Assembly: GCA_021774255.1 (NCBI GenBank) | Contig: JAJFJF010000012.1 | Coordinates: 30,259 to 94,258 of the forward strand | Direction of reading: 5' to 3' | DNA length: 64,000 nt | From: Gammaproteobacteria bacterium | Lineage (GTDB): Bacteria; Pseudomonadota; Gammaproteobacteria; JAJFJF01 | Part shown: piece by piece, positions 4,466 through 40,670 of the stretch | Numbering within the stretch: position 1 is the first letter of the stretch | Layout of the letters: every line of letters begins with the position of its first letter | Position numbers and translations under genes: made by a program | The notes under the pieces: model-generated | Seen by the model: only the letters and a program-made list of their open reading frames with translations | Told to the model about the DNA's origin: nothing | Databases searched by the model: none

Positions 4466-4500
4466 CACTGCTGAGATACAATAGGCACTCGAGGGGCTTC

Positions 4501-5034: not shown

Positions 5035-5795
5035 TCAAAGAAGATAGCATCCAAACAATATTAGCACCACAAACACAAGAGATCTGTAAGCCGTTGTTTG
5101 ACTCAACAGATATCACCTATTTCCATCACGCACGCATCTATCATGATGGCAGAACAACCTCGCTTAACACCTCTCCTCGCTGGCTTAATTGCTATATGGA
5201 TGAAGGGCACTATAAAAACGCTGACTACTACTCCCTGACCCGCGCAGTGACGCTGGTATCTGCCATGCCAAGCCAGCATGCCGAAGCGGCTGCCATGCGA
5301 ACACATTGCAACTTAGATCATAAGTTTGACATCACCGTTAAAACTGACGAATACCTTGATGTGTTTGGATTTGCAACACATGCATATAATGACAAAATCA
5401 TTGGGTTCTATTTCCACAACATGGACTTATTAAAGCGTTTTACAGAATACTTCCTAGAGGCTTCGCAAACATTACAGTCCACTTTACTTTCCCCTGGCAA
5501 CCACTTTCATTATCCTGATCACAAAAAAATATTTTTCAAACCAGCAGAAGAGAAAAAGGCAAGGCATGACAGCTTTGTTTTTAACCGTCACTCTCTAAAA
5601 AAAGCGGCACTCTCACCTAAAGAGCATGAGGTGCTACTTTACTTGCAACAGGGTTACGCCTCAAAAGATATTGCCAGAGCAATGGATATTTCGACCAGAA
5701 CAGCCGAAAGTCATATTTTCAGGCTCAAAAAACGCCTTGGCGTTTATTCTAAATATCAACTTATTCAAGACATCAAGCCTCTGCGCACTGCATAG
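5031..5795 (+). CDS. LuxR-family transcriptional regulator (N-terminal sensor-like domain + C-terminal GerE/LuxR HTH)
   Basis: The C-terminal stretch LSPKEHEVLLYLQQGYASKDIARAMDISTRTAESHIFRLKKRLGV is a canonical LuxR/GerE helix-turn-helix. The N-domain is paralogous to the upstream gene. Confidence 0.75.
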   Translation: MIKEDSIQTILAPQTQEICKPLFDSTDITYFHHARIYHDGRTTSLNTSPRWLNCYMDEGHYKNADYYSLTRAVTLVSAMPSQHAEAAAMRTHCNLDHKFDITVKTDEYLDVFGFATHAYNDKIIGFYFHNMDLLKRFTEYFLEASQTLQSTLLSPGNHFHYPDHKKIFFKPAEEKKARHDSFVFNRHSLKKAALSPKEHEVLLYLQQGYASKDIARAMDISTRTAESHIFRLKKRLGVYSKYQLIQDIKPLRTA

Positions 5796-5926: not shown

Positions 5927-7465
5927 ATGAGGGAAAAACATCAAGCTCTAAAAACAGCCTTTCTTGGTATTGCTATCAGCAGCACCCCCATTTTTGCTGA
6001 CTCAAGCAACCTCGTGCAAAATATTGCTACGTGCGAAGCACTTCAAGAAATTGCATTTTCAGGCGACCTGGGCGGCAACTACGTTTTGACGCAAGACATC
6101 GATTGCACAGAAAGCGCAAAATGGGATGAAGAACAAGGCTTTTTTCCTGTCGGCAATAAAGAAACTCCTTTTACAGGCACATTAGAAGGCAATGGCCACA
6201 CTATTTTTAATTTGACAATTAATCGCCCTGCTCAATCCTATTTAGGTATATTTGGCGCAACAGATGAAGCCAGCATCACCAATCTTACGCTCAGTGAAGT
6301 CAATACCTTTGGCTTGGGCGGAAAATATGTTGCTGCTTTAATAGGAAAATCCAGTAATACCACTCTAAGCGCTATTAATTTAATGAATGTCAGTGTAGAA
6401 GGATTAGTGGATGTGGGTACGTTAACAGGCTATCACAACGGCTCAGAGAGCATTGATAAAATCAGCGTACAGAATGCCTTTGTTCGCGGCACATTTGCCG
6501 GTGGGCTCGTAGGGTATCTGCTTAACAGCACTATTCGTGACGCCTATGTAGATAATACTACACTTGCAACGGCCTATGCTGTCGGTGGACTGGTGGGTGC
6601 AGCTGAATTTTCAACCATTACTAATAGTGGCTTTAGCGGTGATATTGTGGGTGCGCATGCTGCTACCCCAACGGCTATTGGTGGCTTAGTAGGTATCACA
6701 TTAGATGTTTATATAGATAACAGTGTTGTCTTGAATGCACAGATCCACGGAGAAGAGTCCGTGGGCGGATTAGTCGGATATGGCGGGGTAAGCAAAATAC
6801 GAAATAGCCATGTGATTGACGCTGAAATAGCACACCACGTAAATGTCGGCTCAGGTAGAAACATGGGTGGCTTAATCGGTACCAGTTTACACGATCAATT
6901 AACCAACACTTCTGTGCAAAATACAAATATCACCGTCTGGGAAAAAGGCGGTGGCTTGATTGGAAGCGCAACGGGCACAGAGATCAGCCAATCTTTTGCA
7001 GATGGAAACGTGACGGGCACAGCAAGCACATACAGCAACATAGGTGGGTTAATTGGTGAAATCGATGCTACCCGCGCTGTCACGATTACCGATAGCTACT
7101 CTCACTCTTCAGTGACAGCCATGGGCGGCAGAGCCGGCGGTTTAGTGGGCCTCTTAGGCAATGGGCGCATTGAGCGCAGCTATGCCGCAGGGCGTGTAAC
7201 AGGCAATGGGAGCGGCCTGGGCGGCTTAGTAGGCGTCAGCTATTGTCACGATGAGAGTCCGGGGGAAGAAGGCGTACAAAAGGTATTTGAGAGCTATTGG
7301 GATACTCAAACAACCGGGCAAGCAGCATCAGCGGGCGGCGGGATCCCTAAATATCACGATGAAATGAAACGTCAAAGCACGTTTGTCGGCTGGGACTTCC
7401 CTGCTGTCTGGCAAATTGATGAGGGTGTGAGCTATCCCTATTTGGCTTGGGAAAGCACTTCTTAA
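5927..7465 (+). CDS. secreted single-module GLUG-like (VGGLVG) repeat protein
   Basis: The 512-aa protein has a signal peptide and an N-cap (CEALQEI...DIDCTESAKWDEEQGFFPVGNKETPFTGTLEGNGHTIFNLTINRP..YLGIFG). GGLVG repeats follow. The C-cap is SYWDTQTTGQAASAGGG...STFVGWDFPAVWQIDEGVSYPYL. Confidence 0.8.
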   Translation: MREKHQALKTAFLGIAISSTPIFADSSNLVQNIATCEALQEIAFSGDLGGNYVLTQDIDCTESAKWDEEQGFFPVGNKETPFTGTLEGNGHTIFNLTINRPAQSYLGIFGATDEASITNLTLSEVNTFGLGGKYVAALIGKSSNTTLSAINLMNVSVEGLVDVGTLTGYHNGSESIDKISVQNAFVRGTFAGGLVGYLLNSTIRDAYVDNTTLATAYAVGGLVGAAEFSTITNSGFSGDIVGAHAATPTAIGGLVGITLDVYIDNSVVLNAQIHGEESVGGLVGYGGVSKIRNSHVIDAEIAHHVNVGSGRNMGGLIGTSLHDQLTNTSVQNTNITVWEKGGGLIGSATGTEISQSFADGNVTGTASTYSNIGGLIGEIDATRAVTITDSYSHSSVTAMGGRAGGLVGLLGNGRIERSYAAGRVTGNGSGLGGLVGVSYCHDESPGEEGVQKVFESYWDTQTTGQAASAGGGIPKYHDEMKRQSTFVGWDFPAVWQIDEGVSYPYLAWESTS

Positions 7466-18504: not shown

Positions 18505-19128
18505 CTACGCAACAAAGGCTTCGACAGGCGCGAGACCTGTACGCACAATAATCGGCACATCACCTACCATATCAATCACCGTGGTTTCCTCAATGCCGCC
18601 AAACCCACCATCGATAATGAGGTCAACCTGCTTGTGTAAACGCTCATAAATGAGCTCAGGATCTTGCATCGGCAACTCATCGCCGCGCATGAGGCAGGTA
18701 CTGCTCATCAAGGGTTCTCCTAAGCTTTCCAATAACGCGAGCGTAATCGCGTTATCAGGCACTCTCAGGCCCACTGTTTTGCGCTTGGGGTGCTGCAAGC
18801 GCCGCGGTACTTCGCGCGTGGCTTTTAGCAAAAAGGTGTAAGGCGCCGGCGTAGAGGCTTTGATCAAACGATAATCTGTGTTGTTGACTTGGGCATAGGT
18901 CGCCAGCTCCGACAAGTCTCGGCAAATCAGCGTAAATAAATGCCCTTCATCCAGGTGGCGAATAGCGCGAATGCGATCAAGTGCGGCTTTATCTCCCACA
19001 TGGCAGCCAAAGGCATAGGTCGAATCGGTTGGGTAGACAATCACGCCACCCTGGCGCACCACCTCAGCAGCCTGGGTGATTAAACGTTTTTGAGGATTAT
19101 CTTGATGAATTACAAGGCGTTGCGTCAT
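18505..19128 (-). CDS. yciO: L-threonylcarbamoyladenylate synthase-like protein, YciO/TsaC (Sua5/YrdC) family
   Basis: The YrdC-domain sequence VIVYPTDSTYAFGCHVGDKAALDRIRAIR is present. The protein is 207 aa. It is next to trpS, as in many gammaproteobacteria. Confidence 0.8.
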   Translation of the reverse strand: MTQRLVIHQDNPQKRLITQAAEVVRQGGVIVYPTDSTYAFGCHVGDKAALDRIRAIRHLDEGHLFTLICRDLSELATYAQVNNTDYRLIKASTPAPYTFLLKATREVPRRLQHPKRKTVGLRVPDNAITLALLESLGEPLMSSTCLMRGDELPMQDPELIYERLHKQVDLIIDGGFGGIEETTVIDMVGDVPIIVRTGLAPVEAFVA

Positions 19129-19337: not shown

Positions 19338-22300
19338 TTAACGCCAGGCAAATGCCCACATTCCGCGCAGATCGCGCCACCCCTTGTGCAAAGCAGGTAA
19401 GTTATAAAGCAAACGAATCAACATCGCCAGGGTACTCAGCAGAGAAAATAGCAATCGTGCGAGAACAATAGCACTGAGTCCTTGCCGAGCCAGGTACGTT
19501 GCACCAATAGTAAATTGAGGTAAATCTTCTACAGCAACACAGAGCAGCTTAAGAAGTACCAGCTGTGTATCCGCATATTCCGTTCGGGTTCGCAGGCGCA
19601 CCAGATCAGGACCCAGCACGGGCATAAACAATAGCCAATAAGGTAAATCTCCTGCCCGACGAGGCAACCAAGTGCCGTACATCAATTTCAAAGAAAGCAA
19701 CCCAATTCCCAATGAGGCCAGCAAAAAGAATACAAGTGACACCAAAACCAAATCGTTTTGGTGATCTTCATCCATTGCTATGATCAGCGAGCCATCCAGA
19801 ACTTTATCAGCGATCCACCAGAAAAATCCCCAGGTAGCCATCACTTGGTAGCGCTGCAGCAGAAGCAACCAGGCTACTGGTAGACAATAAAACATTTGCG
19901 TCAACCAGCGGTGCTTCCATGTCAAAGTAGGCACCGTTAGGCGCGACCAATCTTGCTCATCGGGTGATAGCAGTTCATTACCCTCAAGCAGGACATCAGC
20001 AAGCACGCTTGAATGTTGTCGTACTGCTGCCTTGAGTGATCCCAGCGCGCGTTTATCGACTCGATTATAGCGGATATCGAGGTGCTGTAGTGTGGGAAAC
20101 GTCCCCAGCTGTTCAAATAAGCAGCGGATCCCCAGCCCCGTGATCTTGTTATGAGAAGCTTTCAGGTGCGTCACAGGGGTTGCTTGCAAAGCACGTAAGA
20201 GCCGTTCAAACGCGACGTCATCCAAACCCAACCCGCTGACATCTACTTCGCTTGGTCCATTTCTTCCCTGCTGCACAAGCAGCTGCAACAAGATCTCGAA
20301 GCTCAAACGCCAGCGATTAGATTTTGAATCGGCGGCCTGCATGAAGTGGTAGACGAGCATCCACCCGTTTTTTTCAATGAGTAGTTGGATAAGTCTCTTT
20401 CCTTTTCGTGTGCATATAAAAGGATTATCCCCTTTCCTGACTAACGCGATGACCTCGCTGGAACGATTACGTGTACCAGCACTTAACAGAGCAATACAAC
20501 CTTCTGGGGTAACCTGGTTTAGCTGTGGTGGATCTGGAAAAAACCACCAGCTTTCAAATAGCCCCACCTGCCCCTCTGTCAAACGCACAAAACTTTGAAG
20601 TCGCTTACTGCAAACCAGCTTAGCGGTGGGTTCAGCAGAAACGTCTACTCCCAAATGAGGCTTTAAATAAGCAGCGATCTGGGGATAGCGTTGCTGGCTG
20701 ATAGCATAAGCTGCACGACACAAAGCGGCCTTTTGCTCTCCCAATCTATTTTCTTCACAAAGAAATTGAACAACATCATAATGCCCCCCTTTTGCGGCCC
20801 ACTCGATAGCGGTGTCACCTTTCACTTTGCGCGTCGCCATACTTGCATCTTGCGTATAAAGCCAGCGCACTGCCGCCAAGTTGCCTATCTCCGCCATCCA
20901 GGCCAAACGATCAGGGCTTTCTAGTAAGCGCTTCAAGCGACGGGAAGCGCGCCAACGATGCAAGACCGTTTCTAACCACAAGCCTGTCGCCATTAGTGTT
21001 ACGGTCAAAATCCAGCGTGGCATCCATTTTTCATAAAACGTGGTGTCGCCTGGGCAAGGCCCTTCAGGAACAGTGGGCGCCTTATCTGGCACCAAATCAC
21101 AATGATAAGGGTAGCTCTTGCCGTGCGCTATGCACCAGATGGTCGGGTCCCAATCTTGGAAAGTTTCCCAGTGATACATTGCTGGCGTTTTTTTACCGTA
21201 GGCACGCAGGCCAAAACTGCCACTTTCTCCTGCTGGAAAGTCTTGCCCCGTTGCATTGATATCCCAGTAAGACGCTTCAAAAATGCCATCTGCTCTTGAT
21301 CCCACCAAGCCACCTTTGGCCTGGTTGGACTGCACACAACCGGCGGTGTAACTAAAACGAACATGATCATTGGCTCCCACACTATGACCGACTAGACCAC
21401 CGGCTTCATCTTTGCCTGTGACAGGCCCCAAAGAATAACAGTATTCAACCATACCGTCGTTTTCGCCAATCACCCCGCCTACTTGGCGGCCCGTGCCTTC
21501 GATAGCGCCTGTACCATAACAATGTGTGAGCACGCCTCCGGCAGTTTGCCGTCCAACCAAGCCAACATTGTCACGACCGGTGACACGACTGGTGGCATAG
21601 CTGCGATCAATGATGCCTGCATTCAGGCCAGCGAGCGCACCCACATCATCACCTTCACTGAGTAGCCGCCCAAAAGCAACGCTCTCAATAACATGTCCCT
21701 CAGCACGGTTATCCCCCACTAAACTTGCAGCACGATCGCCGCGAGCTGTTACCGTGTTATTAACCCAACAACGCAGGAAGATCCCCAGATTTTGGCCAGC
21801 AAGCCCACCCACAGCAACATTGCCTTCAACTTCGCTGTAGACTGCTAATGCTTCAGCCCGCCCCAGGTTGTTGCCAATGGCGCCGCCAACAATTCGAATA
21901 CCCGTCACGGGGCCGTAGGCGGTACTGTGGTAAACGTCTCCACTGCTTTCGCCTATCAATCCACCCGTGGCACTGTCATAGCCAATGACGGCGGCCCATG
22001 ATTGACTGGTGTTGAGCAACCCTTCTAGATGCCCTACCAAGCCACCGACACGATAACTTCCCGTCACGGTTCCAGCAGCAGTACTGTTTGTGATAACACC
22101 AATAATTTTGCTCTGCCCTACTAAACCACCAATGCTCTCACCCGGATCAGCGCCTATCACATCACTTTGCACATGAAGAGCTGTCAGTGTGCCGCCATTG
22201 TGACCAACAGCGCCCCCTACAAAAGCATGCCCTCTCACAATTCCCGAACTGATGCTGTCTGTGACCGTGCTATAGTAATCGTTAGATCCCACCAACCCAC

Positions 22301-23483
22301 CAATAGCCTGTCCTGGGTAGACGCCGGTCACGTTGATTTGAGCATCTACGGTCATCAGTGCACCAAAATTGATACCTACAGCACCCCCCACTAGATAAGC
22401 GCCTCTGACTGCCCCCAAAACGGTGCTCTCCATCACCAGACCTGTGCTTTGTCCTACCAGGCCACCGATACAGCGTCCTGAATGGGCACCGGTCACATCA
22501 ACTTCGGCATAAATACCTGCAAGCGTACCATGATTAAGGCCGAGCACTCCGCCAACCAAAGTCGTGCCTGTTGTCGTAGTAAAAACGGTACTGTTGGTGA
22601 CAGTGCCCGGATTGGATCCTAACAAACCACCAACGAGCTCAACGCCGATCACCTTAGTGTGGGCATAGAGGGCGGTGACTGCGCCATAATTGTTGCCCAC
22701 TGCCCCGCCTACATAAAGGGAACCGGTTACCACGGCAAAAACTTCACCGTTTGTCACTGTGCCCAGCGCACTGTTATACCCCAGCAAACCACCAATAGAG
22801 TGACTCAGGCCGATCCCGGTCAGATTACTTTGGGCACGGATACTTATTAGAGCAGCAGAATTGTAGCCAACTACTCCGCCGACGAGACTGCTCCCTGCTA
22901 CTGTGCCAAAGGCCACCCCCTCAGTCACGGTGCCTTGGTTTCTCCCGACTAAACCACCAATACCCTGTCCTAGGCCTCTACTCTTGACACTCCCTTCTGA
23001 GTAAAGAGCTGTGAGCGTACCTAAGTTATATCCCACTGCCCCGCCGGTATAGACAGTACCTGTTACTACCCCAAGGACTGTGCTGTTGGCGACAGTGCCT
23101 GCATTTCGTCCAACTAAAGCACCGACTTCTTCTTTGCCAACTATTCGAACATGCTTCAAACTCACGCCCTTTATTAGCCCTGTGGTAGCCAGATAGCCAA
23201 ATAATCCTACATAATTTTCATCAGTTCGGTTGCTAGTTAGGTAGCTGATTTCGTACCCGCTCCCATCATATTCACCCGAAAAAGGGGTGGCTAGCGTGCC
23301 AATGGGCCTAAACCCGGCTCCTCCATTCCACGCTTCGCTGCCTGCGCAGCTAATATGATGGGTTTGAATGAAAGAACCCGATAGATTGCCAGCCAAGGCC
23401 TGCAACGACTCACAGCTATCCACAGCGGCTTGCGCGCAAGCCGCCTCTATCAGTAAAAACAGTAGAAAAATTTCCCCAAACAT
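19338..23483 (-). CDS. giant GLUG-like repeat protein with TM segment, ankyrin repeats, RNI-type LRR and conserved C-terminal membrane domain
   Basis: The start was set at MFGEIFLLFLLIEAACAQA, a signal peptide; the track ORF starts 23 codons earlier. The N-cap plus GGLVG/GGAVG repeats and C-cap YWDINATGQ...YPY are followed by a hydrophobic segment. An ANK-like region and an LRR region (LKASHNKITGLGIRCL..LQHLDIRYNRV) come next. The C-terminal domain is YWLLFMPVLGPDLVRL... The N-terminal ~110 aa are nearly identical to those of the divergent neighbour. Confidence 0.8.
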   Translation of the reverse strand: MFGEIFLLFLLIEAACAQAAVDSCESLQALAGNLSGSFIQTHHISCAGSEAWNGGAGFRPIGTLATPFSGEYDGSGYEISYLTSNRTDENYVGLFGYLATTGLIKGVSLKHVRIVGKEEVGALVGRNAGTVANSTVLGVVTGTVYTGGAVGYNLGTLTALYSEGSVKSRGLGQGIGGLVGRNQGTVTEGVAFGTVAGSSLVGGVVGYNSAALISIRAQSNLTGIGLSHSIGGLLGYNSALGTVTNGEVFAVVTGSLYVGGAVGNNYGAVTALYAHTKVIGVELVGGLLGSNPGTVTNSTVFTTTTGTTLVGGVLGLNHGTLAGIYAEVDVTGAHSGRCIGGLVGQSTGLVMESTVLGAVRGAYLVGGAVGINFGALMTVDAQINVTGVYPGQAIGGLVGSNDYYSTVTDSISSGIVRGHAFVGGAVGHNGGTLTALHVQSDVIGADPGESIGGLVGQSKIIGVITNSTAAGTVTGSYRVGGLVGHLEGLLNTSQSWAAVIGYDSATGGLIGESSGDVYHSTAYGPVTGIRIVGGAIGNNLGRAEALAVYSEVEGNVAVGGLAGQNLGIFLRCWVNNTVTARGDRAASLVGDNRAEGHVIESVAFGRLLSEGDDVGALAGLNAGIIDRSYATSRVTGRDNVGLVGRQTAGGVLTHCYGTGAIEGTGRQVGGVIGENDGMVEYCYSLGPVTGKDEAGGLVGHSVGANDHVRFSYTAGCVQSNQAKGGLVGSRADGIFEASYWDINATGQDFPAGESGSFGLRAYGKKTPAMYHWETFQDWDPTIWCIAHGKSYPYHCDLVPDKAPTVPEGPCPGDTTFYEKWMPRWILTVTLMATGLWLETVLHRWRASRRLKRLLESPDRLAWMAEIGNLAAVRWLYTQDASMATRKVKGDTAIEWAAKGGHYDVVQFLCEENRLGEQKAALCRAAYAISQQRYPQIAAYLKPHLGVDVSAEPTAKLVCSKRLQSFVRLTEGQVGLFESWWFFPDPPQLNQVTPEGCIALLSAGTRNRSSEVIALVRKGDNPFICTRKGKRLIQLLIEKNGWMLVYHFMQAADSKSNRWRLSFEILLQLLVQQGRNGPSEVDVSGLGLDDVAFERLLRALQATPVTHLKASHNKITGLGIRCLFEQLGTFPTLQHLDIRYNRVDKRALGSLKAAVRQHSSVLADVLLEGNELLSPDEQDWSRLTVPTLTWKHRWLTQMFYCLPVAWLLLLQRYQVMATWGFFWWIADKVLDGSLIIAMDEDHQNDLVLVSLVFFLLASLGIGLLSLKLMYGTWLPRRAGDLPYWLLFMPVLGPDLVRLRTRTEYADTQLVLLKLLCVAVEDLPQFTIGATYLARQGLSAIVLARLLFSLLSTLAMLIRLLYNLPALHKGWRDLRGMWAFAWR

Positions 23484-23564
23484 CCTGCCTTGGCAAAATA
23501 CTCTCTCCTGATCAATGGCGTAACAAGCAAAGGTAAGATACAAACACGCCATTCAAACGCGAAC

Positions 23565-23600
23565 GCAATAAAAAAGCCAGCTCAAGCAATTGTTTTATAT
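23565..23600 (-). promoter_or_regulatory. conserved regulon promoter motif copy (minus strand; CTTACC-N7-GTTACGCCATTGATCAGGA variant)
   Basis: It has TTAC boxes 13 bp apart. It is ~80 bp upstream of the corrected start at 23483. It matches the core consensus at 14 of 22 positions. Confidence 0.4.
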
Positions 23601-23784
23601 GAAATTAATCCACCCTTCCCTTTGCTTGTCATAACGGTTGTATGCCCTAAAAAACAGAGCCGCCCTGCCCCTAGCATCGCTTTTTCAGGCAACTGTAACG
23701 ACGAGAAGTGCCTACAGAAAGAGTGGCGAGAAAATTTACCCACCCGTGTTACGCTACTAGAAAGGAAAGCGTATTAAAAAAGAA

Positions 23785-26700
23785 ATGGCTAACAACCGTG
23801 TGCTTCTTTTTTTATTGACACTATCTGCAGCAGTTTTAGCCCAAGAAGAAATAGAGAGCTGCGAGGCGTTACAGGCAGTTGCCGACAACCTTTCTGGCTC
23901 CTTTATTCAAACCCGTCACATTAGCTGCGTAGGCAGCGAAGACTGGAATGGAGGAGCCGGGTTTAGGCCCATTGGCACACTAGCCACCCCTTTTTCGGGT
24001 GAATATGATGGGAGCGGGTACGAAATCAGCTACCTCACTAGTAACCGAACTGATGAAAATTATGTAGGATTATTTGGCTATCTGGCTACCACAGGGCTAA
24101 TAAAGGGCGTAAGTTTGAAATATGTCCGAGTCATTGGAAAAGAGCGAGTAGGCGGTTTAGTTGGCCAAAATAGAGGGGCTGTTTTCGATAGCACAGTGCT
24201 TGGAAATATAACCGGCATATTTATGGTGGCTGGGGTGGCAGGTACTAATCTCGGTACGCTGACCAACATCCGTGCCCAAATTATTATAACGGCCCTCCCC
24301 CCTGGCGAACGTGTTGGCGGCTTGGTGGGGGAAAATACCAACACAGAAGGCGCAACAGGTATCGTGACAAATAGCAGTGCTTTCGGGACGGTCACTGGAA
24401 ACTACTTGGTTGGCGGTGCAGCAGGAAATAATGATGGCACGCTCATAGCGATCCATACCCAAACTCACGTGATTGCAGTTGATCCTGGGGAGTACATTGC
24501 CGGCTTAGCAGGACTCAATATGGGGCTCATCGCTGACAGCAGTGCTTCCGGAACAGTCGTCGGTACCCAGCTCGTCGGCGGAGTGGCAGGTGCCAACTTT
24601 GGCACACTGATTGCCACCTCCCAAGCCAACATCACTGGCAGCAGCAAAGCTACCGGAGGCCTGGTAGGCCAAAATGAAGGCCTCGTAATAGATAGCGCAG
24701 CTTTTGGGGCAGTAACTGGCACAACGCATGTAGGCGGAATTGCAGGCATCAACGGCAACACCATAACGGATACCTTCAGCCATTGCACTGTCATAGGAAT
24801 CGAACCGGGGTGGTACGTTGGCGGTTTAGCCGGCTATAACAGTGGCAGCACCATGAACAGTGCTGTCTATGGCGAAGTAATAGGCACCGCTTATGTAGGT
24901 GGCGCGCTAGGCGTGAATTTCGGCACCTTAACTGCCGTCGATGTTGAAGCCAGCGTGAGTGGCCTCGACCCCGCTGAATTCATCGGTGGTGTAGTAGGCG
25001 AAAATGGCGGCACAGGTATTATCTCAAACGCTACCTTTTTTGGGGAGGTAGTAGGCAGTGCCCAAATTGGCGGCGCCTTGGGCAACAACCTGGGCATAGC
25101 GACTCTCCTCTATTCTCAAGGTGACGTGACCGGCATGACTTCAAGCAAATCTGTCGGCGGATTGTGTGGACGCAATGAACGATTGATCTCCCATAGCACA
25201 GCGAATACCGCAGTCTTCAGTGCGGGCCCCAATGCAGGTGGTTTTGTGGGTGAGAACACTTATACTGGCGAATTACTCAACGCCACTGCTTTGGGAAACG
25301 TTATCAGCACAGCAGACAGTGCCGGCGGCCTAGCGGGGGCTAACCATGGTAAAATTTTTGATAGCCTAGCCCTGGGAAATGTCTCTGCCTATTATCTGGC
25401 GGGAGGACTCATTGGCGTCAACACGATCACCGCGCTTGTTAATCGAAGTGCTTGCTTGGGCGTTGTCTCGGGAACAGAAAGCCAAATCGGAGGATTGATC
25501 GGTCTTCACGAAGGTGTCCTTGAGAACAGCTATGCTTTAGGGTGTGCTTCAGGCACCCATACCGTAGGGGCTTTGCTTGGAAAAAATGAAGGCACACTCA
25601 AACATTGCTACGCTGTTGGTTGTGTGACGGCAGAAAACAACACCGGTGGGCTGGTGGGTGGAACACTGTCATCCCATGATGTTTTCTCTTGTTTCTGGAA
25701 TAAGCACAGCACCGGGCAACGCCACCCTGCTGGCGGGCGCTACGACGCCTCCCTACAAACGCTTGGTCTTTCAAACGAAGAGATCCGTCAGGCTGAGACT
25801 TTTATCGAGTGGGATCCTGGTACTTGGCACATGATTGAAGGCCAGCTTCCTTATCTTCCCTCACTCACACTTGCCCCACAACCTCAGCTACCAACCGAGC
25901 ATTGCCCGATGGCGCCACTGCCCTTTTCTGCCTGGATGAGTGAACTTGCATCCCTGGGTACAGTTTGGATCAGCATGATGCTGCTTTGGCTGATGTGGCG
26001 ACGCTGGCGTACCTTACAACAAAGCTTCCTTGTATGGCAGGATAGATGGCTGTGGCGGGTAGCGACAAAAGGCGATCAACACCTGCTTCACTATCTTCTG
26101 ACTGATAAACCCAATATACCTACCGAAGATGAGCAAGAGATCTCTGCCATTGTTTTCGCCGCACGTATGGGTTTTCTTGAGATGGTGGACACCCTCATTA
26201 AAAAATGGAAGATTCAAGCAACAGAGGAACGTTACACGGAAGCATTGTCCACAGCCCAATATTATGGATACCAAGAGATCATCACACTTTTAAAGCCAAC
26301 AGATGCCGGCTCACTTGTCCCCCCCTCTCCTGTCGAGATGAGAGAAGGAGGCGGCAACCTACGCCGTCGAGCGCAACCACGTAGCGGCGCTGGGGAAGCA
26401 CTATTGGGCACCCATCAACAACACACGCAAGAAGAAGAGCTGTACGAAGCCGCTTCCAACGGACACTACTTTACAACATGGTGGCTACTGCTTAACGAAG
26501 CCATATGTAATCGTGTCTTAGAACAATATCAGACAACACCACTTTGGGCAGCTATCAAAAAGGGGCACTTAAATACAGCACTTTTGCTCGTGGCATATGG
26601 TGCCTTTTTACCAGTACAAAATTCACGTAAGCAAACCGTGGCGCACCTCTTGATAAGCCAGCACCGACGGATCTGGGCCAAGCGTCTGCGCGATGCCAGT

Positions 26701-27678
26701 CCAGAAGCGGCTTTGTGGCCGTTTTGTTTCCGGTTATACCGACAAGCCTTGAGAGATAATAGTGATGCTTTAACGTCAGCCGATCTCAGTGGCTACGGTT
26801 TGGGCGACGAAGCGCTTGCCGATTTAGCGGATGCCATGAAGGGGAATTCTCACCTAACGCACTTGTTAGCCAGCAACAACCATTTCACCGACCGAGGCCT
26901 CCAATACCTGGCACAAGTATTGACTGAGCATGCCGCCATCCCGCTCACTGAAGTGGACGTACGTCATACTTTGGTGACGCAGCGGGGCATTGACGCTTTG
27001 CGGCGGGCCAAGTGTGATCTGACGATCCAATGGGAGGGTACCCGAGCAGATACTACCGTCACTGAAAACCGTTGGGCGCACTGGAGTGAAGCATGGCAGC
27101 AGCGATGCAGTTTGAAGCTCGCCCTCTCCTGGCAACGTTATACATTAGGCCCCCTGTTGGGATGGTGGCTTATCATGGCCCATCGCTTTATCAGCGGCTT
27201 TCTCATTCAAGATTTGGATGAACAGCACCAAGAAGCGCTCATGACAGCAGGAAGCATCTTGTTTATCATTAGCTACGCTAATAGCCTGCTTGCCTTACGC
27301 TACGTCTACGGTGCATGGTGCCCTCGCCAACTACTCGATATCCTAGGCTTCTTGGCGTTGTTGCCTTTACTGTCGCCTGAGCTACTTATCCTTATCTGGC
27401 AAATTAACTACCCGGATGTTGCGCTGACGCTTTTTAGCAGTGCCCAACTCCTGCTTGAAGTCGCACAGGCAACTTTGTTTCTTTATGCCGGCACGTTAGA
27501 AGGGTTTTCAGCATTTATCCTTCTAAAGTTAAGCCTCACGCTTTTTTCGATACTCTGGCACCTGGCCGCTTGGCTTCACCAAGGCACGACTCTCATTCCT
27601 CAATTTCAAGGGCTATGGGAACGCCCCGGAGATTTTTTCACACCAGAGGATCCCGGAGAGGAGATGCGCCAAGTCTAA
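23785..27678 (+). CDS. giant GLUG-like repeat protein with TM segment, ankyrin repeats, RNI-type LRR and conserved C-terminal membrane domain
   Basis: The 1297-aa protein has a signal peptide and GLUG repeats. A TM segment follows (VWISMMLLWLMW). The ANK region reads LWAAIKKGHLNTALLLVAYGA. The LRR region reads LSGYGLGDEALADLADAMKGNSHLTHLLASNNHFTDRGLQYLAQVL. The C-terminal region is multi-helix and hydrophobic. Confidence 0.8.
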   Translation: MANNRVLLFLLTLSAAVLAQEEIESCEALQAVADNLSGSFIQTRHISCVGSEDWNGGAGFRPIGTLATPFSGEYDGSGYEISYLTSNRTDENYVGLFGYLATTGLIKGVSLKYVRVIGKERVGGLVGQNRGAVFDSTVLGNITGIFMVAGVAGTNLGTLTNIRAQIIITALPPGERVGGLVGENTNTEGATGIVTNSSAFGTVTGNYLVGGAAGNNDGTLIAIHTQTHVIAVDPGEYIAGLAGLNMGLIADSSASGTVVGTQLVGGVAGANFGTLIATSQANITGSSKATGGLVGQNEGLVIDSAAFGAVTGTTHVGGIAGINGNTITDTFSHCTVIGIEPGWYVGGLAGYNSGSTMNSAVYGEVIGTAYVGGALGVNFGTLTAVDVEASVSGLDPAEFIGGVVGENGGTGIISNATFFGEVVGSAQIGGALGNNLGIATLLYSQGDVTGMTSSKSVGGLCGRNERLISHSTANTAVFSAGPNAGGFVGENTYTGELLNATALGNVISTADSAGGLAGANHGKIFDSLALGNVSAYYLAGGLIGVNTITALVNRSACLGVVSGTESQIGGLIGLHEGVLENSYALGCASGTHTVGALLGKNEGTLKHCYAVGCVTAENNTGGLVGGTLSSHDVFSCFWNKHSTGQRHPAGGRYDASLQTLGLSNEEIRQAETFIEWDPGTWHMIEGQLPYLPSLTLAPQPQLPTEHCPMAPLPFSAWMSELASLGTVWISMMLLWLMWRRWRTLQQSFLVWQDRWLWRVATKGDQHLLHYLLTDKPNIPTEDEQEISAIVFAARMGFLEMVDTLIKKWKIQATEERYTEALSTAQYYGYQEIITLLKPTDAGSLVPPSPVEMREGGGNLRRRAQPRSGAGEALLGTHQQHTQEEELYEAASNGHYFTTWWLLLNEAICNRVLEQYQTTPLWAAIKKGHLNTALLLVAYGAFLPVQNSRKQTVAHLLISQHRRIWAKRLRDASPEAALWPFCFRLYRQALRDNSDALTSADLSGYGLGDEALADLADAMKGNSHLTHLLASNNHFTDRGLQYLAQVLTEHAAIPLTEVDVRHTLVTQRGIDALRRAKCDLTIQWEGTRADTTVTENRWAHWSEAWQQRCSLKLALSWQRYTLGPLLGWWLIMAHRFISGFLIQDLDEQHQEALMTAGSILFIISYANSLLALRYVYGAWCPRQLLDILGFLALLPLLSPELLILIWQINYPDVALTLFSSAQLLLEVAQATLFLYAGTLEGFSAFILLKLSLTLFSILWHLAAWLHQGTTLIPQFQGLWERPGDFFTPEDPGEEMRQV

Positions 27679-27857: not shown

Positions 27858-28130
27858 ATGATGACACCTGAAGCACGCAAAGCAACCCTGACTGAACGTT
27901 TAACAGCAACACTCCGCCCTACTCAATTAAATATCACAGACGATAGCGCAGCACACGCAGGCCACCCAGGTGCACAAAGTGGTGCAGGCCATTTTACGGT
28001 GCACGTTGCCTCAGAAGCCTTTGTCGGCAAGTCTCTTATTGAACAACACCGTTTAGTCTATCAAGCCGTCGGTGATTTAATCCCCGCAGAAATTCATGCG
28101 CTGCGCATTGATGCTTCCCTGCCCGCTTAA
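27858..28130 (+). CDS. BolA-family protein
   Basis: The 90-aa protein carries a BolA-like HFTVHVASEAFVGKSLIEQHRLV motif. Confidence 0.75.
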   Translation: MMTPEARKATLTERLTATLRPTQLNITDDSAAHAGHPGAQSGAGHFTVHVASEAFVGKSLIEQHRLVYQAVGDLIPAEIHALRIDASLPA

Positions 28131-28158
28131 TGCTTGCAACGAAGGCCTTTCTGATTCA

Positions 28159-29127
28159 ATGGAAACATTAAACTTCAAAAAAGCTGTAGAGGCTGCTCAC
28201 GCAAAGATAAGACCTTATCTCTATCAAACCCCTTTAATAAAGGCGTATGCGCTGAGCCATCGGCTAGACGCTGACATCTATCTCAAACTTGAAAACACAC
28301 AGCTCACCCATTCCTTTAAAATTCGCGGTGCTTTTAATAAGGTTTTATCACTCCCCCCTGAAGAAAGGCAGCGTGGTGTCATCACCGCCTCAACGGGTAA
28401 TCATGGTGCGGCGGTGGCATTTGCCTGCCAGAAAATGAATATACCGGCTAAAATTTTTGTTGCTCACAATACACCTGATAGCAAGACCCAAAGCATTAAA
28501 CAGTTTGGTGGCGAGTTGATATTAAGCGGTGCAGATTGTGGTGAAGCAGAACAAAATGCACGCGCCTACGCAGCAGAAAATCAGTTAACCTATATCTCGC
28601 CTTATAACGATATTGATGTGATCTGCGGGCAAGGCACGATTGGGTGTGAAATACTGAGCGTCATGGATGATCTTGACGAAATCTATATCTCTGTTGGTGG
28701 GGGTGGGCTTATTTCTGGGATCGCAGGCTATCTTAAATCCGTTAAAAAAGACGTCAAGGCCATTGCTTGCTTGCCAGAAAATTCACCCGTGATGTACGAG
28801 AGTGTGCAGGCTGGCAAAATAGTGACATTTGCTAATAAGCCTACTCTGTCTGATTCAACTGCAGGGAACCTAGACTTAGATTCAGTGACATTTGATTTTT
28901 GTAAGCAATATGTGGATGACTACACACTTGTCAGTGAAAGTGAGATAGCCCAAGCTATCAAGCTTTTCCTAACACAAGAACATATGCTGGTAGAAGGTGC
29001 TGCTGCAGTGCCCCTCGCCGCCCTGCTAAAAGCAAAAGATAAAATCCAAGGGAAAAAAATTGTTATAGTGGTGTGTGGGGCGAATATCACTCTTGAGCGG
29101 CTAAAGCAGGTTATTTGTGATGGCTAA
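28159..29127 (+). CDS. PLP-dependent threonine/serine dehydratase-like enzyme (fold-type II)
   Basis: The start was set at METLNF, 21 codons after the track start. The PLP-binding lysine motif is SFKIRGAFNK. STGNHGAAVA and a glycine-rich loop are also present. Confidence 0.8.
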   Translation: METLNFKKAVEAAHAKIRPYLYQTPLIKAYALSHRLDADIYLKLENTQLTHSFKIRGAFNKVLSLPPEERQRGVITASTGNHGAAVAFACQKMNIPAKIFVAHNTPDSKTQSIKQFGGELILSGADCGEAEQNARAYAAENQLTYISPYNDIDVICGQGTIGCEILSVMDDLDEIYISVGGGGLISGIAGYLKSVKKDVKAIACLPENSPVMYESVQAGKIVTFANKPTLSDSTAGNLDLDSVTFDFCKQYVDDYTLVSESEIAQAIKLFLTQEHMLVEGAAAVPLAALLKAKDKIQGKKIVIVVCGANITLERLKQVICDG

Positions 29128-29195: not shown

Positions 29196-29756
29196 ATGAA
29201 GCTATTATTTGACTTTATCCCATTGTTGGCATTTTTTATTGCCTTTAAAATTTACGATATTTTTGTAGCCACGGCTGTACTCATGGTGGCCTGCGTCCTG
29301 CAAATAACCCTCTTCTGGCTAAAAAATCGACGCTTTGAAACCATGCATGTTGCCACGCTTGCGGCTGTATTAGTGTTTGGTACAGCAACGATTCTTCTCC
29401 ATGACCCTATTTTTATTATTTGGAAAGCGACCATTGTTAACTGGTTGTTCGCTGCACTCTTCTTGGGCACACAGTTTATTGGCGAGAAAAACCTTATTCA
29501 GCGCCTAATGGAAAAAAACTTGCCTTTGCCCGCCAACGTCTGGACACATCTTAATATCAGCTGGGTGATCTTTTTTGCGGTCATGGGCTTTGCAAACTTA
29601 TATGTTGCCTTTAACTTTTCTCAAGAAGTCTGGGTAAACTTTAAAGTATTTGGCATGCTGGGCCTGACACTGGCCTTTGTGCTTGTGCAGGCGTTGTATA
29701 TGGCACGCTTTATGAAAGAACCAGAGCAAAATCCCTCTCAACAAGACAAGCAATGA
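29196..29756 (+). CDS. yciB: inner-membrane septation protein YciB (IspZ)
   Basis: It begins MKLLFDFIPLLAFFIAFKIYDIF. It has 5 TM helices. The ~180-aa length is typical of YciB. Confidence 0.85.
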   Translation: MKLLFDFIPLLAFFIAFKIYDIFVATAVLMVACVLQITLFWLKNRRFETMHVATLAAVLVFGTATILLHDPIFIIWKATIVNWLFAALFLGTQFIGEKNLIQRLMEKNLPLPANVWTHLNISWVIFFAVMGFANLYVAFNFSQEVWVNFKVFGMLGLTLAFVLVQALYMARFMKEPEQNPSQQDKQ

Positions 29757-29892: not shown

Positions 29893-30202
29893 TTAAAAAA
29901 ACTGTTTGCCTATTTCAGTATGTCTGACCCAATGCGCGCGGGGCTTTTGTGTCCGAACACTAGGCGCATCGGCACGGCATCGGAACCCTCTCCAAGGGAA
30001 CCCGTTCCATAGGCATTCCTGATACAACTGAGCCCGTAAAATAGGCAGTTGTGATGATGTCGAGGTTAAAACCCACCAGGCCACCCACAAAGTCACCAGA
30101 GACCATGACGGAGCCCTTTGCATAAGCACGCATGGTCATGTCGCTGCTAAAATTCACTAGGCCAGCCACAAAGTAAGCAGAGCTCATTGAAGAGCTGCTC
30201 AT
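29893..30202 (-). pseudogene. degenerate/frameshifted fragment of a GLUG-like gene
   Basis: Two overlapping short ORFs sit in different frames. One encodes FVGGLVGFNLDIITTAYFTGSVV. A regulon motif lies ~75 bp upstream. The remnant is far too short for a complete module. Confidence 0.5.
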
Positions 30203-30277
30203 GATATAAGTAAAATTATTTTAATAACAAAAACGAAAAGTATGAGAAAACCTGTTTCAAAAAATAACTTTAACTTT

Positions 30278-30995: not shown

Positions 30996-31072
30996 TGGCG
31001 CGCCCGGAGAGATTCGAACTCCCGACCGCCTGGTTCGTAGCCAGGTACTCTATCCAGCTGAGCTACGGGCGC
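30996..31072 (-). tRNA. argV: tRNA-Arg (anticodon ACG)
   Basis: The reverse complement reads GCGCCCGTAGCTCAGCTGGATAGAGTACCTGGCTACGAACCAGG...GGTTCGAATC...CCA. It has a cloverleaf with a CT-ACG-AA anticodon loop. It is very similar to E. coli argV. Confidence 0.9.
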
Positions 31073-31299: not shown

Positions 31300-31359
31300 G
31301 CAGACTCTCTGCGTAAACTAGGTTTAGCTTACCACAATAGTGGCGGAGAGGGAGGGATT
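31300..31359. repeat. 60-bp direct repeat copy 2 (overlaps the intact tRNA-Ser 3' end)
   Basis: It is identical to 31119..31178. Confidence 0.7.
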
Positions 31360-31431
31360 CGAACCCTCGATGGAGTTTTGCCCCATACTCCCTTAGCAGG
31401 GGAGCGCCTTCAGCCACTCGGCCACCTCTCC
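31341..31431 (-). tRNA. serV: tRNA-Ser (anticodon GCU), long variable arm
   Basis: The reverse complement reads GGAGAGGTGGCCGAGTGGCTGAAGGCGCTCCCCTGCTAAGGGAG...GGGTTCGAATCCCTCCCTCTCCGCCA. It is 91 nt and close to E. coli serV. Confidence 0.9.
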
Positions 31432-31684: not shown

Positions 31685-31891
31685 CTATTCTTCAGGGGAA
31701 GATTCGGGCTTCTCGACGCCACCTTCTTTCTCTTTTTGAATACGTTGATAGATCTCTTCACGGTGTACCGCCACTTCTTTAGGGGCATCCACACCAATAC
31801 GGACTTGGTTGCCTTTCACACCTAGCACCGTCACGGTCACTTCATCCCCTATCATCAACGTCTCACCGACACGTCTTGTTAAGATAAGCAT
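31685..31891 (-). CDS. csrA: carbon storage regulator CsrA/RsmA
   Basis: The sequence [48 protein letters not shown] is a near-canonical CsrA. It has a short acidic tail. Confidence 0.95.
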
Positions 31892-39464: not shown

Positions 39465-40670
39465 CTAATAAATAAATCCAAAATAAGGCAGAGGGATTGT
39501 TTTATGGCTAGGCAGTAAGATGTCATCTTTTACTAAAAATGCATTTTTCTGCCCTTTAATTTGTGTAGTTGTTTTATTTTTCCCGCCAATCTCGAAAACA
39601 GCATCATCGATCTGGTAATCGCCTGCTTTGCTATGAAGGATCTCAAGGCCCGCCCCCTTAATAGACTGCACAAAAAAGAGCTCTCTAATAGTACCCAAAC
39701 CATCATCCTTGAGTGCATTTGATTGCAATGCATAGTGCAAGTTCGTATTACTTAAGAAAGCTTTCTCTGGTTTTCTCAAACCAACGTTCCCTGTTTCAGC
39801 TGGATACAGAACTTCAACCAACCCGGTTTCATGTAAAATATTTAAGTAATTAGCGGCTGTTTTATCGTCAATGCCCATGTTTTTGCTGATGTTATAGGTG
39901 CTAATTTTGCCCGGTGGTATTGTTGACAAAAATCTTAAGATTTTGCTGAAATAGCGCAAATTAGTTGTTTTTAACTGATAAAAATTTGCAATGTCCTCAT
40001 AAATGGTTTTTTCTACAATACTTAATATTTTCTCATAGTACGACAACGCATCTTCCATAAAAAATGGATAGAAACCTTGTTGTAGATATTGCTTGAAATG
40101 CCCCAACAACTTAGGGAAATTTGAAATATTCTCTCGTGGCATTTTGCCCAAAAGTAATTGAGAAAAATCAACTATTGGGAAATTTTCAGCTTGTGAAAAA
40201 TTGAGATACTCCCTAAATGATAAGCCCGGCAAACGATATAACTTGGCTCGTCGTGATAAATCATAACTACCCTTAATGAGATCCAGGCTAGAACTACCTG
40301 AAAACACTATTTTTAGCGAAGGAAAAGCATCATATAAGTTCTTTAGCTCCTGGTTCCAGTTTTTGTAACGATGGATCTCATCAATAAAAAATAACTCAAT
40401 CCCTTCCGTAAGCACTAAATCTTCAACAAATTGATAAATAGTGACATCATTAAAATAAATATGATCAGCAGAAAAGTAGAAAACTTTACTCCTATCGTCA
40501 CATTTATTTTTTATATACTGCAGTAGCAATGTCGTTTTTCCCACACCTCGTGGACCAACAAGGCCAGTCAGACGATTATTGATATTAAAACTCGAATAGA
40601 GGTAGCGGTAAAAATCACTATCCACTTCATCTAGTAAGCGTTCAAATATCAGTCCTAAAGATTTCTGCAC
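39465..40670 (-). CDS. AAA+ ATPase with DUF4143-like C-terminal domain (second paralog; GTG start)
   Basis: The Walker A motif is GPRGVGKTTL and the Walker B motif is FFIDEIH. The architecture matches 1062..2255. The AT-rich codon usage suggests foreign origin. Confidence 0.7.
   Translation of the reverse strand: MQKSLGLIFERLLDEVDSDFYRYLYSSFNINNRLTGLVGPRGVGKTTLLLQYIKNKCDDRSKVFYFSADHIYFNDVTIYQFVEDLVLTEGIELFFIDEIHRYKNWNQELKNLYDAFPSLKIVFSGSSSLDLIKGSYDLSRRAKLYRLPGLSFREYLNFSQAENFPIVDFSQLLLGKMPRENISNFPKLLGHFKQYLQQGFYPFFMEDALSYYEKILSIVEKTIYEDIANFYQLKTTNLRYFSKILRFLSTIPPGKISTYNISKNMGIDDKTAANYLNILHETGLVEVLYPAETGNVGLRKPEKAFLSNTNLHYALQSNALKDDGLGTIRELFFVQSIKGAGLEILHSKAGDYQIDDAVFEIGGKNKTTTQIKGQKNAFLVKDDILLPSHKTIPLPYFGFIY

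Follow-up and report, generated by a model that had tools for sequence, protein, structure and literature searches.

Two intact divergent paralogs, here called A and B, lie head to head in a 64-kb stretch of DNA (the window, i.e., the whole stretch that was analyzed) from an uncultured gammaproteobacterium. Gene A occupies positions 19338 to 23483 or 23552 of the minus strand: its open reading frame reaches 23552 (1404 aa), and translation likely starts at the Met at 23483, giving a protein of 1381 aa with Pfam Glug and Ank_2 matches. Gene B runs from 23785 to 27678 on the plus strand and encodes 1297 aa; the two long divergent frames, of 1381 and 1297 aa, are located exactly where the original prediction had placed them. 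They share the intergenic region 23484 to 23784, which presumably contains both promoters and in which a simple scan found no sigma-70 consensus. On the minus side, the pair is neighbored by rluB, scpB, scpA, trpS, and a yciO/tsaC-like gene (18505 to 19128, minus strand). On the other side, B is followed on the plus strand by a 90-aa bolA-like gene (27858 to 28130), identified by reading its translation, by a threonine/serine dehydratase gene (28096 to 29127) that had not been listed earlier, and by yciB, encoding septation protein A (29196 to 29756). In about 15 gammaproteobacterial relatives, yciB directly adjoins yciO in divergent orientation with a gap of ~70 to 130 bp, and neither a GLUG gene nor the C-terminal domain of A and B is present at that locus in the relatives compared. 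Thus, A, B, bolA, and the dehydratase gene constitute an ~10-kb insertion bounded by the yciO/tsaC-like gene on the left and yciB on the right, which bears out the claim that the pair splits the neighboring block. Housekeeping genes flank the pair on either side, and none of the accompanying genes is related to lipids. The nearest TrpS sequences (69 to 73% identity) come from metagenome-assembled genomes (MAGs), one of them labelled Coxiellaceae.

Both proteins follow the same plan: a signal peptide, one GLUG beta-helix module, a transmembrane (TM) helix, ankyrin (ANK) repeats, ribonuclease-inhibitor-type leucine-rich repeats (LRR), and a membrane domain of ~190 aa at the C terminus (hereafter, C-domain). 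In A, all on the minus strand and after an atypical signal peptide with two Glu in its hydrophobic core, the exported GLUG module (21033 to 23426) extends from the cap AVDSCESLQ at the mature N terminus to a YWDINATGQ...WDP..W end and a Cys-Pro linker. TM helix 1 (20958 to 21014), followed by the positive patch RWRASRR, would have its N terminus outside and its C terminus inside, and it precedes the cytoplasmic ANK repeats and LRR (19962 to 20906) and the C-domain (19338 to 19904), which comprises four membrane helices and one half-inserted helix. In B, on the plus strand, the signal peptide MANNRVLLFLLTLSAAVLA is followed by the GLUG module (23842 to 25926), which closes with a FWNKHSTGQ end and a Cys-Pro linker, and by TM helix 1 (25945 to 25998), contained within helix 17-55 of the modeled tail (pLDDT ~76 to 84). 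The cytoplasmic part (26047 to 27051) consists of ANK repeats, a disordered linker, a second ankyrin-like block, and the LRR, and the C-domain, with a short tail ending in EEMRQV, occupies 27088 to 27678; AF2 modeled the B tail with a mean pLDDT of 80.8 and a pTM of 0.79. In the predicted topology, the beta-helix lies on the outer side of the cytoplasmic membrane, with the ANK/LRR module and the two termini of the C-domain facing the cytoplasm.

One N-cap and one YWD..TGQ...WD end are found in each protein, so that of the "one or two modules" expected for A and B, one holds and two does not; the expected GGAVG, GGLAG, and similar variants do occur beside GGLVG. Both proteins belong to Pfam Glug (PF07581; 75.9 bits for A and 85.9 for B, cutoff 20.5) and Ank_2 (PF12796; 31.0 and 50.1 bits, cutoff 27.3), and a tail profile searched against the PDB retrieved ankyrin-1/2 at an E value of 1e-80 as well as ribonuclease-inhibitor-type LRR, placing the LRR in the RI/NLR type. 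Matches of A/B-class proteins to PADLOC defense models were limited to the ankyrin region, against the candidate PDC-M72A (E 1e-4 to 1e-9), and do not make them members of that system. The conserved C-terminal domain, previously counted as part of an ANK+LRR tail, is instead a polytopic membrane domain in its own right; no other part of the A/B proteins is as informative.

A second and larger pair with the same domain plan lies at 43500 to 60505. It is formed by gene C (43500 to 51713, minus strand; five GLUG modules) and gene D (51983 to 60505, plus strand; six GLUG module ends), with Glug scores of 296 and 261 bits and tails as in A/B. The tails of A to D align across ~600 residues with 25 to 37% identity, and the architecture is common to all four genes, as had been proposed; an EM..[LV] C-terminal tail is conserved in B, C, D, and several relatives. 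Besides these four tail-bearing genes, the window contains two genes that have GLUG repeats only and no such tail, as well as a GLUG remnant. The claim of at least four genes of this class in 64 kb therefore stands. The head-to-head arrangement does not extend to the whole family, since one member, P0016 (locus L030), has no divergent partner gene. A C-domain profile recovered 19 representatives from 1.84 × 10^9 proteins, including the four of the window, all with E ≤ 1e-10, all singleton clusters, and always with the domain at the C terminus. Neither Pfam nor NCBIfam has a model for this domain; hence, together with its extreme rarity, the family is missed by standard annotation. The LRR, or all of ANK/LRR, is missing from some members: P0013, P0014, and P0017 keep the GLUG and membrane domains without ANK/LRR. 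In P0019, the C-domain occurs twice in tandem, and the second copy is divergent.

Phylogenetic analysis of the tails resolved four orthogroups, each with 92 to 100% bootstrap support and each including sequences from other assemblies: A (A, P0007, and P0012), B (B, P0006, and P0018), C (C and P0005), and D (D and P0010). A tree of the cytoplasmic part unites C and D (100% support) as well as A and B (74%). Thus, each pair looks like its own old inverted duplication, kept since; between the two histories initially considered, the phylogeny favors pairwise duplication over independent acquisition, and no member of A/B or C/D is a pseudogene. Head-to-head A/B-type pairs also occur on two contigs of another sample (L028 and L029). 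Moreover, P0006 and P0012 are both on 184,734-bp contigs, and P0005 and P0010 are both on 82,867-bp contigs.

The 5' coding regions of A and B form an inverted repeat of 374 nt, 84% complementary (left arm in A, 23071 to 23444; right arm in B, 23830 to 24203), with a core of ~175 nt that is ~98% identical (4 mismatches). Residues 41 to 120 of A share 95 to 98% nucleotide identity with B, and synonymous third positions are 92 to 94% identical in this segment versus ~10 to 60% elsewhere. The right arm is a gene conversion tract, and the 5' ends of A and B, encoding the ectodomain cap, have recently been homogenized by gene conversion. The N termini of P0006 and P0012 have likewise been homogenized within their genome. 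We considered whether the inverted paralogs could be alternative cassettes of variable surface proteins, whose beta-helix would be switched or diversified by recombination or inversion (phase or antigenic variation). The repeat does bracket both promoters and 5' ends, as in shufflon- or fim-like invertible-segment loci, many inverted repeats (60 to 620 nt, 70 to 87% identity) link C and D, the module number varies between pairs (one versus five or six), and homogenization is seen in a second genome. However, A-type and B-type genes are stable orthogroups conserved across organisms and assemblies, the conversion tract makes the caps alike rather than different, each gene is intact with its own start codon and signal peptide, and the neighbors of A/B on both sides are housekeeping genes, with no site-specific recombinase among them. 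The N termini of the L028 and L029 pairs are, moreover, not homogenized (40 to 44% identity). We regard this explanation as very unlikely. Where the original prediction had offered hetero-pairs or variable alternatives, it is the hetero-pair that is retained: it fits the head-to-head pairs of L028 and L029, and a single XKR-type repeat, as described below, would be expected to dimerize.

The XK-related (XKR) phospholipid scramblases consist of two related repeats, each with four TM helices and a partly inserted helix (PMC8298096). Hallmarks of the family are acidic residues conserved in both TM1 and TM3, together with a PQL kink in the latter (PMC8298096), and D26, D30, K134, E137, and E141 of XKR8 are needed for scrambling (PMC8500837). 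In both its fold and its signature residues, the C-domain of A and B corresponds to the N-terminal repeat of these eukaryotic scramblases; its sequence link to them is weak. When two models were compared with known structures, all three XKR structures were top ranked, and no other plausible match through the membrane part was present among the best 60 hits. The domain has the four TM helices and the one partly inserted helix of an XKR repeat, and in the hhalign register it carries the TM1 and TM3 acidic residues and the PQL kink in a hydrophilic TM3. In XKR8 numbering, the 19 representatives have D/N/E at D26 (16), D at D30 (14), K/R at K134 (17), E at E141 (16), and Q at Q145 (16), with P at P144 in 10; the counterpart of E137 is polar and uncharged, mostly Asn. 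The conserved charged residues sit within membrane helices. The bacterial domain is predicted to have its two ends in the cytoplasm, as do XKR8, XKR9, XKR4, XK, and CED-8 (PF09815), with which it shares the succession TM1, TM2, half-inserted helix, polar TM3 with an E..PQ kink, and TM4, as well as counterparts of the buried charges that XKR8 requires for scrambling. Unlike XKR, the bacterial proteins also carry an exported GLUG beta-helix, one further TM helix, ANK repeats, and LRR in the same chain, and they have neither a caspase site nor a known partner such as basigin or VPS13A. The eight TM helices of a two-repeat chain are not found in A to D, which have one repeat each, and only P0019 has a second. 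As an analogy only, XKR8-basigin likewise sets a single-pass helix with an extracellular domain beside an XKR-type bundle, TM1 taking that place in the same chain here; A and B are, in contrast, covalent fusions with a beta-helix instead of Ig domains.

Sequence comparison gave marginal statistics. In a relaxed Pfam scan, XK-related was the family matching the most C-domains, i.e., 2 of 19, neither of them A or B; the best match (PF09815, profile positions 2 to 167 of 337) reached an E value of 0.0014 and 18.1 bits, below the gathering score of 24.8 required for Pfam membership. Alignment with XKR8/9/4 by hhalign placed 143 columns onto XKR8 residues 14 to 180 with a score of 21.0 and a probability of 1 to 2%, compared with 11.9 ± 2.4 for column shuffles, 13.7 ± 2.6 for block shuffles (1 of 100 reaching the real score), and 10 to 13 for reversed sequences; against the XKR C-terminal repeat there was no match (13.6 over 28 columns). 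A profile search of PDB sequences retrieved no XKR chain, and in a Foldseek search against the PDB no XKR was among the best 50 matches, all of which were ankyrin proteins. The XKR likeness could then be coincidental, the C-domain being a new polytopic anchor of periplasmic or surface adhesins or sensors held in the inner membrane, with cytoplasmic scaffolding repeats. Chance superposition is possible between helical membrane bundles, AlphaFold may be drawn to folds already known to it, and P0013, P0014, and P0017 keep GLUG and the membrane domain when ANK/LRR are missing, as an anchor would. Against this, the three XKR structures led the ranking with both models, to the exclusion of any other plausible membrane-part match among the best 60, and five signature residues are conserved in register, some of them charges inside membrane helices, which a passive anchor would not need. 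We therefore consider coincidence unlikely.

Altogether, we propose that A and B are an old, conserved, divergent paralog pair of rare bacterial single-repeat XKR-like envelope proteins, probably dimers and plausibly A/B heterodimers, a reading to which we give an even chance. The residues matching XKR8 D26, D30, K/R134, E141, and Q145 would give the XKR-like domain a buried polar path that a lipid or a lipid-linked head group could take across the membrane, and this path would be regulated by the cytoplasmic ANK/LRR module together with whatever partner the beta-helix binds. The working unit would probably be a dimer, because XKR proteins have two repeats and A/B-class proteins one, and the two tandem domains of P0019 support this idea. 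The adjacency kept between A- and B-type genes points to an A/B heterodimer expressed from one shared control region; we infer heterodimerization from gene adjacency alone, and lipid scrambling by A and B is suggested by analogy with XKR. Points that speak against the proposal are the weak sequence link to XKR, the uncharged counterpart of E137, the lack of lipid-related neighbors, the partnerless P0016, the members without LRR or ANK/LRR, and the atypical signal peptide of A. A stronger version, in which these half-size XKR relatives would be obligate A/B heterodimers that rebuild the two-repeat fold and couple a beta-helix probe and an ANK/LRR switch to lipid movement in the bacterium's own envelope or, once delivered, in a host membrane, appears possible but doubtful.

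A host membrane is also where a further explanation would place these proteins or their tails, as effectors of a symbiont or pathogen of protists that acquired the XKR-like domain, ANK repeats, and RNI-type LRR from eukaryotes; ANK/LRR would bind host proteins, and the XKR-like domain would perturb lipid asymmetry. The XKR fold is otherwise described in eukaryotes only (PMC8298096, PMC8500837), and our literature search found no report of bacterial or prokaryotic XKR homologs. The Coxiellaceae label among the nearest TrpS sequences is in line with such a lifestyle, and AT-rich, eukaryote-looking soil metagenome fragments share the LSS.F.RL ... NFIIEDIPQF spacing, although they had been preselected by the search motif. 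A standard Sec signal peptide and type I layout argue instead for insertion into the inner membrane of the bacterium itself, a GLUG beta-helix ectodomain is typical of bacteria, and the window contains no secretion system genes. We thus hold host targeting to be rather unlikely. The ANK and LRR proteins of Legionella, Coxiella, and Ralstonia (LegL1, GALA/RipG) resemble A and B in combining ankyrin and RNI/GALA-like LRR; the known ones are soluble secreted effectors, whereas the repeats of A and B form a loop between membrane helices of Sec-exported type I proteins.

In animals, dying cells display phosphatidylserine through the action of XKR proteins, and XK acts together with VPS13A in a human neurodegenerative disease; both the scrambling mechanism and the evolutionary origin of the family are unsettled. 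If our proposal is true, the core mechanism could be studied in a small and tractable bacterial protein that has a single XKR repeat and conserves these buried charges, and one could ask directly if the N-terminal repeat is sufficient for the lipid path. Such a protein would also bear on how the two-repeat fold came about; under the stronger version above, the family would represent either an XKR repeat prior to fusion or eukaryotic "eat-me signal" machinery borrowed by a bacterium. A and B would, moreover, represent a new kind of envelope protein, in which an extracytoplasmic beta-helix is linked to cytoplasmic eukaryote-like repeats. With known GLUG beta-helix proteins (PF07581; N-terminal regions of IgA1 metalloproteases and large surface proteins) they share coils of 27 to 29 residues and a Cys-containing N-cap. 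They differ in having no protease, autotransporter barrel, two-partner secretion domain (no Pfam or NCBIfam match to the latter two in A to D, with housekeeping neighbors), or cell wall anchor, and in that a TM helix ties the module to repeats in the cytoplasm and to a polytopic membrane domain. Weak matches to Peptidase_M26_N were found in the GLUG region of D, P0007, P0008, and P0014.

The two ORFs of the divergent GLUG/ANK/LRR pair occupy the positions of the original prediction. Gene A (19338-23552, minus strand) encodes 1404 aa as an ORF, or 1381 aa if translation starts at the Met at 23483, and gene B (23785-27678, plus strand) encodes 1297 aa. The larger divergent pair of the window consists of gene C (43500-51713, minus) and its partner gene D (51983-60505, plus). 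Pfam matched Glug and Ank_2 in all four proteins, and no NCBIfam model matched A or B. The order of parts is the same in A to D: a signal peptide, the GLUG module(s), a Cys-Pro linker, and a hydrophobic helix followed by Arg/Lys, then ankyrin repeats, a second ankyrin-like block, a ribonuclease-inhibitor-type LRR, and a hydrophobic domain of ~190 residues, here called the C-domain. The four tails, which stretch from the final module end to the C terminus, align at 25 to 37% identity, and the GLUG modules number one in A, one in B, five in C, and six in D. One or two modules had been proposed for A and B; one each proved right and two did not, as either protein has a single Cys-containing N-cap with "GFxP" and a single "YWD..TGQ...WD..W" end, and the GGAVG and GGLAG variants described for their repeats were found. 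From the distribution of loop charges, the beta-helix of A to D would lie outside the cytoplasmic membrane, and the ANK/LRR part and the two termini of the C-domain would be cytoplasmic. The predicted signal peptide of A (MFGEIFLLFLLIEAACAQA; 23415-23552, minus) holds two Glu within its hydrophobic core and has a basic n-region only if translation begins at the upstream Met (23552), unlike the canonical signal peptides of B and of the A-type orthologs.

An exhaustive HMMER search of 1.84 billion cluster representatives with the C-domain profile gave 19 matches, all at E ≤ 1e-10, with no twilight-zone matches among these representatives. The domain is C-terminal in 19/19. The window contributes four of these proteins, and each of the other 15 forms a singleton cluster, their sources being a few NCBI contigs and a small number of Logan assemblies; scans of genome and metagenome contigs with patterns from the tail alignment returned no relatives. 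Most members share the full architecture, while ANK/LRR is missing from P0013, P0014, and P0017, the LRR from P0010 and P0016, and the GLUG part from P0019, which has many ankyrin repeats.

Under a relaxed Pfam scan, the family matched by the most C-domains was XK-related, with 2 of the 19, and its best match (E 0.0014; profile positions 2-167 of 337) scored 18.1 bits against a cut-off of 24.8. The chain sequences of XKR8, XKR9, and XKR4 from the PDB were aligned and compared by hhalign with the bacterial C-domain alignment, resulting in one collinear match of 143 columns over XKR8 residues 14-180 (score 21.0, E 0.04). This score is to be read against the following hhalign controls: (i) column shuffling gave 11.9 ± 2.4, with a maximum of 20.1 in 100, (ii) shuffling of 12-column blocks gave 13.7 ± 2.6 and reached the real score in 1/100, (iii) reversed sequences scored 10-13 over ~30 columns, and (iv) the XKR C-terminal repeat scored 13.6 over 28 columns. 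The sequence signal is thus weak, yet it singles out the N-terminal repeat. No XKR chain was retrieved when PDB sequences were searched with the C-domain profile, and the Foldseek search of the PDB was dominated by ankyrin matches, with nothing for the membrane domain.

The evidence on fold comes from predicted models of one protein. An AlphaFold model based on four sequences was of mediocre quality (pLDDT 64), and one that used 12 family members was of good quality (pLDDT 80.8, pTM 0.79); the latter predicts a C-domain with five helices, of which a short one is interrupted at a nearly invariant "LPxLSPE." The published description of XKR9 divides the protein into two related repeats, each with four TM helices and one helix that enters the membrane only in part, and gives as hallmarks of the fold acidic residues on TM1 and TM3, the partly inserted helix that separates TM2 from TM3, and a TM3 that is unusually hydrophilic and has a kink at a conserved PQL motif (PMC8298096). 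Scrambling by XKR8 requires residues D26, D30, K134, E137, E141, and R183 (PMC8500837). In the hhalign register to XKR8, the 19 bacterial members have D/N/E at D26 (16/19), then an invariant R/K, D at D30 (14/19), K/R at K/R134 (17/19), a polar residue, mostly Asn, at E137, E at E141 (16/19), P at P144 (10/19), and Q at Q145 (16/19). Altogether, the similarity of predicted fold and motifs argues that the C-domain resembles half of an XKR scramblase. If the XKR match were an artefact, the domain could possibly be a plain new anchor, a reading that leaves its conserved buried charges unexplained. Preferring the resemblance to XKR, we nevertheless do not claim membership in PF09815 because the best Pfam score falls below the threshold and A to D carry one repeat whereas XKR proteins have two. 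The literature searched contained no bacterial or prokaryotic XKR homologs and nothing on a GLUG-ANK-LRR architecture, an absence that is no proof, and we classify A to D as bacterial proteins in which an XKR-like domain with a single repeat is part of a fusion without precedent.

A short C-terminal tail of the "(E/Q)M..(L/V/I)" type is conserved in B, C, D, P0005, P0009, P0010, P0011, P0014, and P0018 (e.g., EEMRQV, IEMSTL, KEMTEMI, QEMRELHL, and TEMKVV), and A-type proteins differ. The C-terminal tail of XKR8 and XKR9 acts as a plug that is removed by cleavage.

Neighbour-joining trees with bootstrap defined four orthogroups at 92 to 100%, named after the window genes: A with P0007 and P0012, B with P0006 and P0018, C with P0005, and D with P0010. 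In the tree of the linker-ANK-LRR part, C grouped with D (100%) and A with B (74%), and the membrane-domain tree did not resolve at its deep nodes. Because of these orthogroups and of the C-D and A-B groupings, each pair looks like the product of its own old inverted duplication, older than the split from the other assemblies. The phylogeny that the original prediction had called for, run here on the tails, thus favours pairwise duplication. Duplication of a whole pair as a unit had been considered, as a first C-domain tree placed A with C and B with D, and was rejected because those deep nodes had 9 to 62% bootstrap, against the 100% and 74% of the cytoplasmic part. On two Logan contigs of one sample, the A-type P0007 lies head-to-head with a B-like gene (L028) and the B-type P0018 head-to-head with an A-like gene (L029). 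P0006 and P0012 are on equal-sized contigs (184,734 bp, also the size given for P0013), as are P0005 and P0010 (82,867 bp), and each couple would be adjacent, judging from contig size only. The claim that such genes always occur head-to-head holds for A/B, C/D, and the two Logan pairs and fails for P0016, which has no divergent partner gene; hence, pairing is common, not universal.

An inverted repeat of 374 nt (arms 23071-23444 and 23830-24203, 84% complementary) brackets the A/B pair, and its core of ~175 nt has four mismatches. Across residues 41-120 of A, identity to B reaches 92 to 100% in protein and 95 to 98% in nucleotides (codon alignment), and protein identity is about 12 to 60% outside this segment. 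Synonymous third positions are 92 to 94% identical within it and ~10 to 60% elsewhere. As synonymous sites are homogenised as well, the 5' tract results from recent gene conversion rather than from selection acting on the protein. The tract starts just past the signal-peptide segment of A (23415-23552). Within-genome homogenisation is also seen between P0006 and P0012 (74 to 81% identity, versus 40 to 45% to A and B of the window), and the Logan pairs show none (40 to 44%). Moreover, C and D have many inverted stretches in common in their internal modules (48857-51400 versus 52314-55609), e.g., a 622-nt repeat at 81% (49057-49678 versus 53886-54507), and each contains tandem 78- to 84-nt GLUG repeats, which suggests repeated exchange between these two genes as well. 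Hypothetically, if the segment between the A/B arms were to invert, the two genes would exchange promoters and signal peptides and both would stay intact. The inverted repeats fit the proposal that A and B are variable alternatives, but that proposal conflicts with the stable orthogroups, with a tract that homogenises rather than diversifies, and with the lack of a recombinase among the neighbouring genes.

As a mechanism, we propose that the XKR-like domain would offer lipid or lipid-linked head groups a polar path, that the ANK/LRR module and the ectodomain could regulate this path, and that a single repeat would need a partner. A dimer is favoured since XKR proteins have two repeats and P0019, from a 49,650-bp NCBI contig, carries a second, divergent copy of the C-domain directly after the first (residues 977-1154 and 1172-1313; i-E 0.004 for the second, which spans the profile core), a tandem layout like that of XKR. 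The simplest form would be an A/B heterodimer because A- and B-type genes stay together. The joint retention of the genes fits the hetero-pairs suggested in the original prediction, and the proposed heterodimer of XKR-like domains is the weakest step of our model.

On the minus side, A/B is flanked by rluB, scpB, scpA, trpS, and a yciO/tsaC-like gene, and on the plus side by a BolA-like ORF (27858-28130, 90 aa), then a threonine/serine dehydratase gene and yciB. Among 27 trpS-region loci of other gammaproteobacteria, yciB and yciO are adjacent and divergent, ~70 to 130 bp apart, in ~15, and none of these ~15 loci has a GLUG gene or C-domain. As both genes adjoin in these relatives, the window carries a ~10-kb insertion at the yciB-yciO junction, and the split of this gene block by A/B is real. 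A sigma-70 scan of the A/B intergenic region gave no match. The C/D pair has mutS on one side and an nlpD-like gene on the other, and recA, recX, alaS, and lysC belong to the same neighbourhood. The closest TrpS proteins are from an uncultured proteobacterium MAG (73% identity) and an uncultured Coxiellaceae MAG (69%). This hint of Coxiellaceae-like relatives and the eukaryote-like parts of A to D would fit host-directed effectors, but their Sec/type-I layout and a window that lacks secretion genes argue against this reading. A role as a defence system was dropped, as PADLOC gave generic ankyrin similarity only.

Two extra GLUG genes, at 2510-4027 (minus, 505 aa) and 5927-7465 (plus, 512 aa), encode a signal peptide and one complete module ending exactly at "SYPY," without TM helix or tail; therefore, the window has six GLUG genes, not four. 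Between them lie an unknown ORF (4447-5034) and a LuxR/GerE-type regulator (5031-5795). Of two AAA_14/DUF4143 ATPase genes in the window, one (1062-2255, minus) is near these small GLUG genes and the other (39465-40670, minus) is between pncC and mutS, ~3 kb from C. Just downstream of yciB, a GLUG-repeat remnant of ~50 to 66 aa (about 30017-30212, minus), closest to the C/D coils, sits among otherwise doubtful ORFs, with two adjoining tRNA genes (tRNA-Arg, 30996-31072, and tRNA-Ser, 31341-31431, both minus) and csrA (31685-31891, minus) nearby. An earlier rearrangement or insertion may have left it behind.

Five AT-rich soil metagenome contigs (L071, L080, L104, L105, and L107) contain short, eukaryotic-looking ORFs rich in N, I, and K with the motif "...LSVLSSKFARLNIFSA.YSTKTQ..LFWLG.LNFIIEDIPQFIIQV," whose spacing is that of the half-inserted helix and TM3 motif in the bacterial C-domain. 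Their E-values are inflated because the fragments were preselected by the search pattern. The ORFs end immediately past "QV," possibly because an intron begins there, and eleven related unnamed fragments (P0021-P0031) are present in the protein collection.
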